A DNA stretch of 64,000 nucleotides, taken from assembly GCF_050320075.1 (NCBI RefSeq), contig NZ_CP190018.1; one strand, given 5' to 3'. The translations under genes and the position numbers were made by a program. The stretch is from Escherichia coli. GTDB taxonomy: Bacteria > Pseudomonadota > Gammaproteobacteria > Enterobacterales > Enterobacteriaceae. The notes below the pieces were generated by a model. It searched no databases, had not been told where the DNA came from, and was given only the letters and a program-made list of their open reading frames with translations. This document shows positions 1 to 32,829 of the stretch, one piece after another (position 1 is the first letter of the stretch; the number at the start of each line of letters is the position of its first letter).

Positions 1-414
1 AGAACAATGTTTATTGGCGGACTGCAAGGCGCAAAATGGGAAATTCCACATCAGGAAATCCAGAATGCGACGAAAGCCTGCCACGGGCTATTTCCCAAAC
101 GCCTTGTGATGGAAGCAGCCTGTCTGTTTGCCCAACGTTTGCAGGTAGAGCAGATTATTGCCGTCAGCAATGAAACGCATATTTACCGCAGCCTGCGTTA
201 TCGCGATAAAGAAGGCAAGATCCATGCCGATTACAACGCTTTCTGGGAGTCGGTTGGCGGCGTATGTGATGCTGAACGCCATTACCGCCTTCCGGCACAG
301 ATAGCACGAAAAGAGATTGCCGAAATCGCCAGTAAAAAACGGGCTGAATACCGTCGGCGCTATGAGATGCTCGACGCTATTCAGCCACAAATGGCCACGA
401 TGTTTCGCGGTTAA
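1..414 (+). CDS. ybjX: 3' portion of VirK/DUF535-family protein YbjX (5' end lies upstream of window)
   Basis: Frame-1 reading frame open from the window edge to the stop at 412-414; position next to ybjD matches K-12 synteny as remembered; product family assigned from memory, not from motifs. Confidence 0.6.
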   Translation, partial: RTMFIGGLQGAKWEIPHQEIQNATKACHGLFPKRLVMEAACLFAQRLQVEQIIAVSNETHIYRSLRYRDKEGKIHADYNAFWESVGGVCDAERHYRLPAQIARKEIAEIASKKRAEYRRRYEMLDAIQPQMATMFRG

Positions 415-2069
415 TCCGCGCGACCGCGCGCCAGCCACAGCACGCGTGAGAACATTTTTTTCAGCAGCGTCGGTACGGAATCCACACCACGACGTCCTGC
501 CTCCATTGCCACTTCAATGGCAAGATCGGGTTTGGAAGAGCGATGGATCGCTTTCGAGATAATTTTGCGCAGATTCATCGGTACATTTTCCGGGATTTGC
601 GCCACGCGGTGGAACACATCGGAAAATCCCTGGCGATACATAAAATGTTCCATATCCAGCGCCGGTAACGCCGTTAAATGTTCTCGTTCGGCTTCCCGAT
701 CGTTATTCAACAGGCTGCGTACCGTAGCGGCATATTTCTTCCCTGCTTCATCGCCATCGACCAGTACATGCCATTCAATCCCCATTCGCCGGGCAAATTT
801 AACCAGTGGCTTTAGCCCGGACTGGGCAAACTCAATGACCTTGATCCCTTCGGCATCAAAATGATGTCCGCACTGACGCGCCAGTTCATTGATAACCCAA
901 GTTTCCGTTTCCCCTTCCACCAGCAGCCAGCAGCGTGCAAACAGCGATGACGGACGGTTAAAACGAATGTGAAAGGATATGCGTCGGCTATCTTCGGTAC
1001 TCAAGCCACTCGGCCCCAGACGCCAGGCGGCAACGCGCGAGGACTCACGTACCAGTCGGCAAACATGCTCTACCGGCGTTAACGAAAGCAACTCACCCGA
1101 GTTGGTGGTGGCAATGCGCTGCAATGGCAGAAGATTCAACAGATGCCAGGCAACTGAAAGCATAATGGGGTGTAAACGGGTTTCTGGATCTTCGATCAGC
1201 AACAATGGACGGGCGTCTTTATCCAGTCGCAATGTGCCTTTTGCCTGCAATAAAGTAGCAAACAGGCCGAGCAAAATAACCCGATACGAGCGCCCACCAG
1301 GTCGGTCAATCATCCGGTTGATGATATCCAGATAGCGCCAGCTTCGTTGCTCATTGCTGGCCCGCCGCCGCATTAAACGATATCGCGCCTGTCCGGCCCC
1401 CTGCTCAGAGAAATAATGCTCAAGCAGTTGCACCATTGCGGAAAGTCCCTGACGAATCTGCCCATCAGAGAGATTTTGCGGATGTGAGGATAACTCACGG
1501 GCGAGGAAATCGAGCTGGCGCGCGGTGACTTCCACATTAGGGACATTTGGCACCGTGCCGTTACGAATACGGCGCATAAAACGGGCATCACGCAAGCGCA
1601 GCACCGGCATTAAACGCACCAGATGGCGTGCCTGGTCGTTAATATCCTCGACATCAATCGGATGTCCGTCTTTATCGAGAAAACTGCGCAGTGTCATCAC
1701 GCTGCCGTCTTCCGCACTCTCCCCTTCCAGACGATAAAAAATACGGTGATAGCCATCGGTGCATGGCGTCCAGCACGCTTCCAGCGGCCGATAGCGGCGA
1801 ACCCGATGTCGGCCTGGCAGCGATTCGCGGAAGGTCAAAATAATATGCAGATGATGTTCTCGCCCGTTGATATCTCCCGGCGGGAACCAGAAATCGTCGC
1901 GCTCAAAATGGTAGAGATCTGATTCTGGCGATAGCAGCAGGGTTAAGGCGTCCAGCAAGCTGGATTTACCCCACGCGTTCTCCCCAATCAGGACGTTGTT
2001 TTGTTCCAGCATCAACGACAAACGGTTGATACCGCGAAAACCCACAATTTCAACGCGCTCAAGAATCAT
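411..2069 (-). CDS. ybjD: OLD-family ATP-dependent endonuclease homologue (N-terminal ABC-type ATPase, C-terminal Toprim-like region)
   Basis: 552-aa ORF; Walker A-like GENAWGKSS near N-terminus, acidic Toprim-like segment LLVEGETE near C-terminus; length and synteny match YbjD. Confidence 0.9.
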   Translation of the reverse strand: MILERVEIVGFRGINRLSLMLEQNNVLIGENAWGKSSLLDALTLLLSPESDLYHFERDDFWFPPGDINGREHHLHIILTFRESLPGRHRVRRYRPLEACWTPCTDGYHRIFYRLEGESAEDGSVMTLRSFLDKDGHPIDVEDINDQARHLVRLMPVLRLRDARFMRRIRNGTVPNVPNVEVTARQLDFLARELSSHPQNLSDGQIRQGLSAMVQLLEHYFSEQGAGQARYRLMRRRASNEQRSWRYLDIINRMIDRPGGRSYRVILLGLFATLLQAKGTLRLDKDARPLLLIEDPETRLHPIMLSVAWHLLNLLPLQRIATTNSGELLSLTPVEHVCRLVRESSRVAAWRLGPSGLSTEDSRRISFHIRFNRPSSLFARCWLLVEGETETWVINELARQCGHHFDAEGIKVIEFAQSGLKPLVKFARRMGIEWHVLVDGDEAGKKYAATVRSLLNNDREAEREHLTALPALDMEHFMYRQGFSDVFHRVAQIPENVPMNLRKIISKAIHRSSKPDLAIEVAMEAGRRGVDSVPTLLKKMFSRVLWLARGRAD

Positions 2070-2494
2070 ATCCCCTCCAGAAATATGTGACTTATCCTTT
2101 ACGCTGGCAGTATAACGGGAAAGGCCATGCTAATACGTGATGACATCACATTTAAGCATGGCAAATGTCTGAAAAATGAGCGAATAATCGCGTTATACTC
2201 CCTCTTGCTGATAAGCCTGCAAAAACAACAAAATCAAATAATTAGCATGATAAATTATTTTTTATTACGCCTAAAGGATTAAATCTTTTGCTTGCACTAC
2301 ACTGTCAATCAGACAAATGACTATATGGGGCAACCCGCTGTTGCCCTAAATCAAATTTACTGGATTTATTTATCTGGTGAATGACTCGCCTTCGTTTTTA
2401 AAATAGCCGCGCATTATTTCCGTCGTCACTTTTTTACGACGACCCTATAAAACGACCATATTTTTCACAGGGTCAATTTTTAATTGAGGTGGAT

Positions 2495-3190
2495 ATGTTC
2501 AGAAAATTAGCAGCTGAATGTTTTGGTACTTTCTGGCTTGTTTTTGGTGGCTGTGGTAGTGCCGTACTGGCCGCAGGCTTCCCGGAATTAGGCATTGGTT
2601 TTGCCGGCGTGGCGCTGGCATTCGGTCTGACCGTTCTGACGATGGCCTTTGCTGTTGGTCATATTTCTGGTGGTCATTTTAACCCGGCGGTCACTATTGG
2701 TTTATGGGCTGGCGGACGTTTCCCGGCAAAAGAAGTCGTTGGCTACGTAATTGCCCAGGTTGTCGGCGGTATTGTTGCGGCGGCGCTGCTGTATTTAATT
2801 GCCAGTGGTAAAACGGGTTTTGACGCGGCAGCCAGCGGTTTTGCTTCTAACGGTTATGGCGAGCATTCGCCAGGCGATTATTCCATGCTTTCCGCGCTGG
2901 TAGTTGAACTGGTATTGAGTGCAGGTTTCCTGCTGGTGATCCACGGCGCAACCGACAAATTCGCTCCTGCTGGTTTTGCGCCGATCGCTATTGGTCTGGC
3001 CTTAACCCTGATTCACTTAATCAGTATTCCGGTGACTAACACTTCTGTTAACCCGGCGCGCAGCACCGCGGTTGCTATCTTCCAGGGCGGCTGGGCGTTA
3101 GAACAACTGTGGTTCTTCTGGGTGGTGCCAATTGTCGGCGGTATTATCGGTGGTCTGATTTACCGGACTCTACTGGAAAAGCGTAATTAA
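2495..3190 (+). CDS. aqpZ: Aquaporin Z water channel
   Basis: 231-aa product from ATG 2495 (track ORF starts at upstream GTG 2489); two NPA motifs ([14 protein letters not shown]); RBS GAGGTGG upstream. Confidence 0.95.
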
Positions 3191-3198
3191 TTAACGCA

Positions 3199-3229
3199 GA
3201 AGGCCTGGCGCAATGTCAGGCCTTTTTTA
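3199..3229 (+). terminator. Rho-independent terminator of aqpZ
   Basis: GC hairpin AGGCCTG-N8-CAGGCCT followed by TTTTTT directly after the aqpZ stop. Confidence 0.8.
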
Positions 3230-3289
3230 AATATATTGATTCATCTTCCTGTTGCGCTCCTTGATGTGTTAAGCCACATATAGTCACTG

Positions 3290-3500
3290 GCGCAGGGAGC
3301 GCGCAGGGGGCGGCCAATCGCCGCCGCCCCCTGCACCCCCGGGCTCTGGCGAACAAAATCGCCGCTGCGCGGTGCCCTCGACTTATCCCTTACGGCTACC
3401 GGGTCGGGCGCGAGGTAACATCCCTGTAAAACGCGCCCTCAGCCCACATCCATGTGGGCTGCCCCGGCCTTCAGGGAACGCCTCGGCGATTTTGACGCCA
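3290..3500. repeat. GC-rich palindromic intergenic element (possible REP/BIME-like or small MITE-like repeat)
   Basis: Perfect 12-bp stem GCAGGGGGCGGC/GCCGCCCCCTGC (3303-3331, 5-nt loop); perfect 10-bp palindrome CAGCCCACAT/ATGTGGGCTG (3440-3461); imperfect long-range inverted repeat GGCGAACAAAATCGCCG (3348-3364) vs CGGCGATTTTGACGCC (3484-3499); G+C far above the neighbouring intergenic DNA. Confidence 0.45.
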
Positions 3501-3673
3501 CCAACACCGGTGCGGTTTGTAATTAAAGCGCAAGAATATCTTTAAATGAAAATGAATACCCTACCGATCCTTATGCATAACATTTCCTTTTAATTGCAAC
3601 TTTACTCGTCCTTCCGCTTTCAGTAGTGTGTCATCGCGCATTTCGACTTCATCTTTGCAAGGACTGGGTTTTC

Positions 3674-32731: not shown

Positions 32732-32810
32732 GCCACTGCTTTTCTTTGATGTCCCCATTTTGTGGAGCCCATCAACCCCGCCATTTTGGTTCAAGGTTGG
32801 TGGGTTTTTT
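32732..32810 (+). ncRNA. rybB: RybB small regulatory RNA (sigma-E-dependent, Hfq-binding)
   Basis: GCCACTGCTTTTCTTTGATGTCCCC... followed by terminator hairpin and TTTTTT; near-exact match to the RybB sequence as I remember it; sits between ybjL and rcdA. Confidence 0.85.
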
Positions 32811-32829
32811 GTTGCCTAAAATTTATCTA

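Follow-up and report, generated by a model that had tools for sequence, protein, structure and literature searches.

Within the window, the whole stretch of 64,000 nucleotides of Escherichia coli DNA that was analysed, the ybjD coding sequence occupies positions 411–2069 on the minus strand, a detail absent from the preliminary description of this DNA, and encodes a protein of 552 aa followed by a stop codon. The ATG is at 2069, preceded 6–7 nt on its 5' side by a GGAGG ribosome-binding site, and the stop is at 411–413; the gene is flanked, in the window as in E. coli chromosomes, by the convergent ybjX and the divergent aqpZ. The ybjD DNA is 100% identical to that of several E. coli chromosomes, in which RefSeq names it "ybjD: ATP-dependent endonuclease", and the protein is matched by the Pfam families DUF2813 (residues 1–375, E 2e-160) and OLD-like_TOPRIM (residues 376–440, E 4e-16), with further matches of the N-terminus to the P-loop families AAA_15, AAA_21 and SMC_N. 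Given its 1.66 kb length and these matches, the open reading frame is not a chance one.

YbjD is a stand-alone OLD-family ATPase-nuclease of the DUF2813 clade that is already described in the literature (2019, 2026). In particular, Schiltz et al. 2019 (PMC6755086) used YbjD as a query to define the family and assigned it to Class 1, and the micropublication of Atahualpa et al. 2026 (PMC13261556) described the same 552-aa protein as "OldB"; the cloning primers of the latter match the window at both ends of the reading frame, and K35 and the 377/378 domain boundary also agree. A search for ybjD literature beyond the 2026 paper gave only noise. New here are the constraint measured for each domain, a C-terminal architecture resembling Class 2, the replacement in the H-loop, the conserved promoter-like element and the gene overlap.

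Upstream of the gene, a conserved -10-like hexamer, TATACT (2109–2114, minus strand), is located 45 nt 5' of the start codon; the element reads CGTTATACT in E. coli and CGCTATACT in most relatives. It was recognised by cross-species conservation: 69 of the 77 Enterobacteriaceae species compared have TATACT 34–65 nt 5' of the start, versus 1.8% of shuffles. A generic sigma-70 scan of the upstream region did not find a full promoter, crude LexA, PhoP, CRP, Fur and extended -10 patterns had no match in 2070–2488, and Rfam gave no match in or near the locus. A perfect palindrome, GTGATGTCATCAC, lies about 80 nt 5' of ybjD and is restricted to Escherichia. At the other end, the ybjD and ybjX reading frames overlap tail to tail by 4 bp (411–414; TTAA, overlapping stops), an arrangement that is identical in 44 of the 56 species having both genes, and the ybjD-ybjX pair is listed among convergent excludons identified from RNA-seq (PMC12288877).

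Domain architecture and active-site residues

The combination of an ATPase and a Toprim region typical of OLD proteins, proposed for the 552-aa product in the preliminary description, is borne out by Pfam, the AF2 model (pLDDT 90, pTM 0.89), Foldseek, whose top matches are GajA, Ts OLD and the retron-Eco8 OLD, and a profile comparison against the PDB (Ts OLD 5.6e-22, GajA 1.1e-20). Alignment with Ts OLD, GajA and P2 Old places in YbjD the Walker A, the Walker B and the D-loop His of the family ATPase, and the C-terminus has the Toprim fold, in which the acidic metal ligands (E ... DxD and a second acidic pair) are conserved. P2 Old, the founding Class 1 member, has the same two-domain architecture; hhalign aligns it to YbjD with a probability of 98% over residues 259–454, a range in which the Walker B, the D-loop His and the Toprim E...E and DxD residues correspond, whereas the C-terminal regions of the two proteins do not align.

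The ABC-type ATPase region (residues 1–377; 939–2069, minus strand), which is reported to be essential for the over-expression phenotypes, includes the Walker A or P-loop motif GENAWGKSS already noticed in the preliminary description and located by translation and conservation at residues 29–37 (1959–1985, minus strand). The 78 Enterobacteriaceae compared show no variation at G29, E30, G34, K35, S36 or S37, and among 115 representatives of the DUF2813 family position 35 is occupied by Lys in 101 cases and by Arg in 10. The segment LLLIEDPETRLH (residues 289–300; 1170–1205, minus strand) comprises the Walker B, LLLIEDPE at residues 289–296, and the D-loop; its aligned counterparts are IEEPE..LHP in Ts OLD and GajA and IDEPELYLHP in P2 Old, and its residues E293, D294, E296 and H300 are invariant in the orthologues of the 78 Enterobacteriaceae. 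The H-loop position is represented by TTNS (residues 321–324; 1098–1109, minus strand), in which Asn323 takes the place of the His found in the equivalent STHS segments of Ts OLD and GajA and in that of P2 Old, where the residue is H332 and is essential. N323 is invariant in the 78 orthologues, and across the 115 family representatives the residue is Asn in 72, His in 18, Gln in 13 and Tyr in 9. The rate of ATP hydrolysis by YbjD is uncertain owing to this replacement; N323 alone predicts little, because GajA, which keeps the H-loop His, reportedly does not hydrolyse ATP.

The ATPase fold is interrupted by a helical insertion (residues ~161–285; 1215–1589, minus strand), modelled by AF2 as five helices (177–195, 202–220, 227–233, 242–255 and 260–277) joined by linkers with lower pLDDT. 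Its position is the same as in Ts OLD, in which the dimerisation domain sits between the ABC lobes (PMC7049728), and on the basis of the model the five-helix insert is a candidate equivalent of that domain.

The Toprim core (residues 378–470; 660–938, minus strand), supported by the Pfam OLD-like_TOPRIM match, carries E385, E387, E389 and D438-G-D440, and is followed by a C-terminal helical domain (residues 471–552; 414–659, minus strand) with D472-x-E474, candidate metal-B ligands, and an invariant S512-K513-P514. In the alignments, E385 is paired with Ts E377 and P2 E398, E389 with Ts D381 and P2 E402, and D438/D440 with Ts D431/D433 and P2 D453/D455. The Toprim acidic residues are invariant or nearly so across the DUF2813 family; the catalytic residues, matched to Ts, P2 and Bp residues that were validated by experiment, do not vary in 78 species or across 113 family representatives.

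Class assignment within the OLD family

The genomic context of ybjD is that of Class 1, in which the gene stands alone without a helicase, a retron or AriB: none of these neighbours was found in E. coli, in the 78 Enterobacteriaceae or at six distant DUF2813 loci. One distant homologue is directly followed by a family-B DNA polymerase gene, a single observation. The profile of DUF2813 lies equally far from Ts OLD (Class 1) and from GajA (Class 2), and the C-terminal 110 residues of YbjD have no sequence alignment to any solved OLD structure, so that only the comparison of folds is informative for the class.

The structural prototype of Class 1 is Ts OLD (PDB 6P74), whose type of C-terminus lacks a C-terminal helical domain and a Toprim insert helix and has a basic residue, R487 in Ts OLD, seven positions after the metal-B Glu (Schiltz 2020). 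YbjD does not match this type: its model has four C-terminal helices (473–547) and a helix at 458–464 between alpha3 and beta4, Gly481 is invariant at position +7 after the metal-B Glu, and it is K513 that is the invariant basic residue. The Class 2 architecture, consisting of a Toprim together with a helical domain at the C-terminus, corresponds to YbjD, with 164 of 175 residues of its C-terminal region (CTR) superposing on the CTR of the Class 2 Bp OLD and K513 as a candidate counterpart of Bp K562, the catalytic Lys contributed by that helical domain, at an identity of only 12–17% to GajA and Burkholderia pseudomallei OLD (PDB 8SM3, 8U7I, 6NK8). As modelled, the C-terminal region follows Class 2 (GajA/Bp OLD) in its architecture and carries Lys513 as an invariant residue; the helicase partner of Class 2 was not found in the E. 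coli flanks or in any of the related loci inspected.

This architecture, together with a GajA model as the best PADLOC match and GajA structures as the marginally best structural matches, could be read as the mark of a decayed Gabija orphan, that is a GajA without GajB that is functionless or residually active. Such a reading is very improbable and decayed GajA was rejected, since GajB, a UvrD-like helicase, is missing beside ybjD in E. coli and in the 78 Enterobacteriaceae as well as beside the DUF2813 homologues in the six distant contexts, and strong purifying selection on every part of the protein, with catalytic residues invariant in 78 species, is incompatible with decay. The equal distance of the profile from Ts OLD and GajA also speaks against it, as does the published phylogeny, in which Class 2 sits inside Class 1's diversity. 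The gene named "ybjD" in SGI1 islands is a different one, a Gabija-type gene adjoining uvrD.

Evolution and distribution of ybjD

The claim of a conserved core gene rather than an insertion, made in the preliminary description, is verified by a count over 5426 complete E. coli genomes, 5424 of which have ybjD in single copy (at least 95% identity), and it agrees with the synteny, fixed across Enterobacteriaceae at 78 loci, and with the native GC (53.4%) and GC3 of the gene. The overall dN/dS of ybjD is 0.085 and the lowest value within the protein, 0.045, belongs to the Toprim core; these absolute values are approximate, as dS is about 1 in the comparisons and near the saturation of NG86, while the ranking of the domains is safer, since dS differs little between them (0.93–1.10). 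Mean identity to the E. coli residue is likewise greatest in the Toprim (92%), and purifying selection is strong on every YbjD domain.

No DUF2813 orthologue was found in 50,697 phage records, save one 2-kb fragment, and true plasmids have no ybjD orthologue either, the "plasmid" matches being mislabelled chromosomes, chromids or chromosomal fragments; the OLD/GajA genes of true plasmids have at most 31% identity to YbjD over at most 53% of the protein. A horizontal acquisition or mobile element was considered and rejected on the native GC and GC3 and on this absence from phages and true plasmids. DUF2813/YbjD is thus a vertically inherited chromosomal clade, and ybjD evolves like a housekeeping gene and unlike a mobile anti-phage gene; Gabija, in contrast to this fixed core gene, is mobile and patchy.

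Anti-phage phenotypes and cellular role

That the function is not established, as stated in the preliminary description, agrees with the 2026 study, in which the plaque assays suggested there were carried out: over-expression gave a weak anti-phage phenotype and deletion none (PMC13261556). YbjD is expressed in the wild type; its induction reduces the plating of Bas18 and Bas20 and makes the plaques of Bas64-68 smaller, so that 7 of 68 phages are affected, while deletion leaves the susceptibility to all 68 BASEL phages unchanged (PMC13261556). Both the over-expression toxicity and the weak anti-phage effect require the ATPase region and not the Toprim: mutation of three Toprim acidic residues or deletion of the Toprim leaves the phenotypes unchanged, and K35A retains the phenotype with greater toxicity (PMC13261556).

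The effects on these phages, the defence function of every bacterial OLD relative characterised and the strength of the PADLOC matches, of which the strongest are GajA models (best 7e-80), favour YbjD as a true single-gene anti-phage defence of Class 1, like P2 Old or the Vibrio cholerae OLD, active at native expression, in which the infection would be sensed and the cell then killed or arrested, or the phage DNA nicked. This is rather unlikely, considering that the deletion has no effect and that the phenotypes need over-expression, touch few phages and do not involve the nuclease domain. The mechanism also differs from that of P2 Old, a phage-encoded protein that cuts tRNA and is lethal to recBC cells, whereas YbjD is encoded on the chromosome and is toxic independently of RecBC; in particular, the recBC(ts) strain SK129 is killed by P2 Old and not by YbjD expression (PMC13261556). 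Neither the distribution of the gene nor its composition and core-gene dN/dS are defence-like and, in general, the protection at native level and the accessory, mobile and patchy distribution that define a defence gene are not found for ybjD.

A housekeeping enzyme of nucleic-acid processing or genome maintenance, whose anti-phage phenotypes are side-effects of over-producing the ATPase/DNA-binding half, is a reasonable possibility, somewhat short of probable. It accords with the core-gene, vertical evolution of ybjD and with a Toprim on which constraint is strongest although the published phenotype does not depend on it, and has a precedent for OLD roles outside defence in Cran1, the "class 5" OLD of Sulfolobales, for which an antiviral defence role was not detected. 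Cran1, compared here by its description, is like YbjD chromosomal and vertically inherited, keeps both the ATPase and the Toprim motifs intact and has a helical insertion within its Toprim; it is, however, archaeal, essential and cell-cycle regulated, whereas ybjD is not an essential gene and for its Keio deletion PMC13261556 reports no growth phenotype, a point against the housekeeping role. The polymerase neighbour of the distant homologue would also fit such a role, although it is one case.

As for the mechanism, YbjD, a chromosomally fixed OLD enzyme, has with somewhat better than even confidence a nucleotide-gated ATPase and a two-metal Toprim nuclease. Its SMC/Rad50/RecF-like ABC ATPase, with a helical insert of putative dimerisation type, is fused to the Toprim, which the C-terminal helical domain would complete as a nuclease. 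The nucleotide state of the ATPase would gate the enzyme, the ATP-bound form being restrained and the nucleotide-free form, by analogy with GajA, active, toxic and probably engaged with nucleic acid; ATP would then be an off-switch and not a fuel. The K35A phenotype (PMC13261556) and the invariant Asn323 in place of the H-loop His are counted in favour of this gating. The intact Toprim site would nick or cleave nucleic acid, with E385, D438 and D440 as putative ligands of metal A and E389, D472 and E474 of metal B, and with K513 joining the site; cleavage itself, its two-metal chemistry and the part played by K513 are predictions. Since mutation or deletion of the Toprim leaves the only known phenotypes unchanged, it is conservation alone that points to an involvement of the nuclease.

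The most constrained domain being irrelevant to the only known phenotype also suggests that the physiological function of YbjD is still undiscovered; this function presumably needs the Toprim and would therefore differ from that in the published over-expression assay. It is tentatively proposed, as an idea that may well prove wrong, that DUF2813/YbjD is a domesticated branch of the OLD family, Class 1 by context and with a Class-2-type nuclease, which performs a Toprim-dependent housekeeping or stress task on nucleic acids in gamma-proteobacteria and not defence, possibly with stationary-phase or stress regulation by way of the conserved CTATACT -10 element and of the antisense overlap with ybjX. 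The value of ybjD, an uncharacterised "y-ome" gene found in practically all genomes of E. coli, Salmonella, Klebsiella and Enterobacter, is chiefly that of a pointer for experiments and not of a new discovery. OLD proteins are currently interpreted almost only as phage-defence effectors, an interpretation that a core, syntenic and strongly constrained ybjD does not fit; if the domesticated branch is real, the published anti-phage effects would be by-products of the over-produced, nucleotide-free ATPase half and YbjD would be the bacterial counterpart of the archaeal Cran1.

Gene, predicted fold and candidate active-site residues of YbjD

The ybjD gene is a 552-codon ORF on the minus strand of the window (411-2069; ATG at 2069, stop codon at 411-413). 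It is preceded by a GGAGG ribosome-binding site and lies between the convergent ybjX and the divergent aqpZ. Its DNA is 100% identical to that of several E. coli chromosomes, where it is annotated as ybjD, "ATP-dependent endonuclease". The GENAWGKSS motif corresponds to residues 29-37 (window 1959-1985), and Pfam assigns residues 1-375 to DUF2813 (E 2e-160) and residues 376-440 to OLD-like_TOPRIM (E 4e-16), with further matches to the P-loop N-termini of AAA_15, AAA_21 and SMC_N. ORF, motif and domains are as in the preliminary description, which had omitted the strand.

A confident AlphaFold2 prediction (mean pLDDT 90, pTM 0.89), based on 113 diverse members of the family, was compared with the PDB by Foldseek; GajA structures ranked first (E 1e-19, TM 0.58), followed by Thermus scotoductus OLD (Ts OLD, 5e-18), the retron-Eco8 OLD and PtuA-type ATPases, and the family profile matched the PDB sequences of Ts OLD (5.6e-22) and GajA (1.1e-20) about equally. 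Since the predicted fold, Toprim included, matches GajA and Ts OLD, the earlier reading of an ABC ATPase joined to a Toprim region as OLD architecture stands, on Pfam as well as on structure and profile matches. This interpretation is already known: E. coli YbjD (b0876) was the query defining 837 OLD homologues, with E. coli placed among the Class 1 (isolated-gene) members (Schiltz et al. 2019, PMC6755086), and phenotypes have been available since 2026.

Residue equivalences were taken from alignments to Ts OLD, GajA and P2 Old and from published mutational data (Schiltz 2020, PMC7049728). In the ATPase region, the Walker A lysine is K35 (K37 in P2 Old), the Walker B segment is E293-D294-P-E296, and the D-loop histidine is H300 (H283 in Ts OLD, H306 in P2 Old). 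In the Toprim core, the metal A residues are E385, D438 and D440 (E377, D431 and D433 in Ts OLD; E398, D453 and D455 in P2 Old); metal B has E389 as first ligand (D381 in Ts OLD, E402 in P2 Old) and, in the C-terminal helical domain, D472-x-E474 as candidate pair. All these residues are invariant in 78/78 Enterobacteriaceae orthologues and vary little or not at all among 113 representatives with 28-54% identity to YbjD. The H-loop is different: STHS in Ts OLD and GajA, and H332 in P2 Old, whose H332A substitution is inactivating (Schiltz 2020, PMC7049728), are replaced in YbjD by Asn323. This residue is invariant in the orthologues, and the position is occupied by N (72), H (18), Q (13) or Y (9) in 115 family representatives; GajA has the histidine and yet is reported not to hydrolyze ATP.

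OLD class by gene context and by C-terminal architecture

No helicase, retron or AriB gene adjoins ybjD in E. coli, in 78 Enterobacteriaceae or in six distant DUF2813 loci, which makes YbjD Class 1 as far as gene context goes. As regards structure, Ts OLD, unlike Class 2 proteins, has neither a C-terminal helical domain nor a helix between Toprim alpha3 and beta4 (Schiltz 2020, PMC7049728). In the YbjD model a helix occupies this point (458-464) and four C-terminal helices span 473-547; of the 175 residues in its C-terminal region, 164 can be superposed on that of Class 2. In Ts OLD and P2 Old a catalytic basic residue lies seven positions after the metal B glutamate, where YbjD has an invariant Gly481; R479 is not conserved family-wide. 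Lys513, part of an S-K-P motif, is present in 113/113 family sequences and is the obvious candidate counterpart of the Class 2 helical-domain lysine (K562 of B. pseudomallei OLD). Judged from the model, YbjD does not look like Ts OLD; its Class-2-like C-terminus fits the published nesting of Class 2 inside the diversity of Class 1, and also fits GajA models being its best PADLOC matches (7e-80). The best description, on the predicted structure, is that of a stand-alone OLD carrying a Class-2-type nuclease module.

Two naming problems were observed. The PADLOC model PDLC00094 ("GajA") scores up to 378 bits, over the full length, on the stand-alone DUF2813 proteins P0184, P0155 and P0126; it is evidently very close to, or built from, proteins without a GajB neighbour, and ybjD orthologues annotated by HMM alone could thus be mistaken for Gabija components. 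The "ybjD" of Salmonella Genomic Island 1 (SGI1; S024) adjoins the uvrD-like helicase gene S023 (PMC9035990) and is thus part of a Gabija-type pair, not the chromosomal gene.

Distribution, constraint and upstream region of ybjD

Of 5426 complete E. coli genomes, 5424 carry one copy of the gene (≥95% identity). When one genome per species was scanned, at least 585 related loci were recovered, and the best 80 of them belong to Enterobacteriaceae and related Enterobacterales (68-99% identity); among these the order lysO-aqpZ-ybjD-ybjX-macA is largely kept, with all five genes in 45/78 loci and subsets in most others. The median identity of YbjD to the E. coli protein (84%) matches the values for its core neighbours MacA (85%), LysO (85%) and AqpZ (88%); YbjX, at 50%, is much lower. 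Composition is native (GC 53.4%, GC3 0.56). By tblastn, 50,697 phage records contained no YbjD orthologue, the only matches being P2 old (28% identity) and a single record of a 2-kb fragment; in 72,556 plasmid records all full-length matches of at least 40% identity lay on Mb-scale replicons, chromids or chromosomal fragments (Enterobacterales, Aeromonas, Vibrio, Photobacterium and Salinivibrio), true plasmid OLD/GajA genes reaching no more than 31% identity and covering no more than 53% of the protein. The profile of ybjD is that of a vertically inherited core gene and not of a typical defence gene; its description as a conserved core gene rather than an insertion is borne out by prevalence, fixed context and composition.

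Pairwise Nei-Gojobori dN/dS (292 pairs, dS 0.15-1.2) was 0.085 for whole YbjD, 0.095 for the ATPase region, 0.052 for the ABC C-lobe, 0.045 for the Toprim core and 0.075 for the C-terminal helices. This purifying selection, with the catalytic residues invariant in 78 species, effectively excludes a decayed orphan GajA.

Some variants were noted besides. In some strains otherwise 100% identical to the window, as in E. coli SCU-109 (L094), an IS110-family transposase lies between aqpZ and lysO (equivalent to window ~3190-3626) with ybjD intact. Giant DUF2813 members of 1046-1867 aa (P0149, P0162, P0163, P0165, P0175 and P0196) share the YbjD-type N-terminus (MYLQSAEI.NF.GIRHL...GEN.WGKSS) and the Toprim domain, with ATPase-region insertions of several hundred residues and long C-terminal extensions without Pfam match. 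In a single case, on metagenomic contigs (L088-L090), the gene for the homologue P0184, which shows ~42% identity to YbjD across its C-terminal half, has a PhdYeFM/PIN toxin-antitoxin pair on one side and a family-B DNA polymerase gene on the other, all on the same strand and separated by short gaps.

A generic promoter scan upstream of ybjD found no sigma-70 consensus. In 69/77 species (L008-L087), against 1.8% of shuffles, a TATACT hexamer precedes the start codon by 34-65 nt; in E. coli this -10-like element (window 2109-2114, minus strand) is CGTTATACT, usually CGCTATACT across species, and the conserved form reads CG(C/T)TATACT with a non-conserved -35 region. CTATACT with C at -13 resembles the -10 element preferred by sigma-S, and aqpZ has been described as RpoS-dependent; sigma-S-type control of ybjD is no more than a lead. 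With 37% GC, the 419 bp of intergenic DNA upstream of the gene are AT-rich. A perfect 6-1-6 palindrome, GTGATG-T-CATCAC (window ~2137-2149, ~80 nt upstream of ybjD), recurs with at most one change in Escherichia loci but not in those of other genera, and may represent either an operator specific to this lineage or a chance occurrence. As to regulation, a cathelicidin peptide induces ybjD ~2.5-fold in UPEC (reported value 1.31, taken as log2) alongside marR, evgS and arnF, and the H-NS antagonist EnrR has one of its top binding sites at the promoter of the Edwardsiella homologue. Across all 64 kb, Rfam gave a single match at gathering threshold, the RybB sRNA (window 32735-32813, plus strand, 104.8 bits), ordinary for this E. 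coli region.

At the other end, the converging ybjD and ybjX frames share their last 4 bp (window 411-414), so that terminators have no space between them; 44/56 Enterobacteriaceae species (L008-L087) keep this overlap. On RNA-seq evidence the two genes have been listed as a convergent excludon (PMC12288877), suggestive of antisense coupling of this VirK/YbjX-family gene with the 3', nuclease-encoding end of ybjD.

Phenotypes, proposed mechanism and selected function

Experimental characterization is due to Atahualpa et al. (MicroPubl Biol, May 2026, PMC13261556), who proposed the name oldB and whose cloning primers match both ends of the window ORF, so that the gene is the same. The plaque assays suggested in the preliminary description are largely found there: the wild type expresses ybjD, the Keio deletion leaves susceptibility unchanged for 68/68 BASEL phages, and arabinose-induced YbjD has a weak effect, lowering the plating of Bas18 and Bas20 and reducing the plaques of Bas64-68. 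Toxicity and the anti-phage effect depend on the ATPase region, being lost upon its removal, and are independent of Toprim, being unchanged when three of its acidic residues are mutated or residues 378-552 deleted; K35A retains the effects with higher toxicity, and toxicity is independent of RecBC, P2 Old killing a recBC(ts) strain whereas YbjD does not (PMC13261556). Genuine phage defence at native level, to which the induced phenotypes would point, appears unlikely beside the silent deletion and the core-gene profile; a housekeeping or stress-related nucleic-acid process, with Cran1 as precedent, can be put forward tentatively.

YbjD is the product of a stand-alone core gene, with an OLD fold and intact, constrained ATPase and Toprim motifs. 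By analogy with GajA its general mechanism is, somewhat probably, that of a nucleotide-gated two-metal nuclease: the ATP-bound protein would be restrained and the nucleotide-free form would engage nucleic acid, K513 would complete the active site, and the selected function would require the nuclease. Asn323 and the K35A result are compatible with an ATPase domain acting mainly as a nucleotide-binding switch. The Toprim core is dispensable in the published assay yet under the tightest constraint, and the simplest reading is that over-expression phenotypes miss the selected function. The hybrid class features of YbjD are of secondary interest; the main remaining interest lies in this strong constraint on the nuclease domain as against its dispensability in the only known assay.
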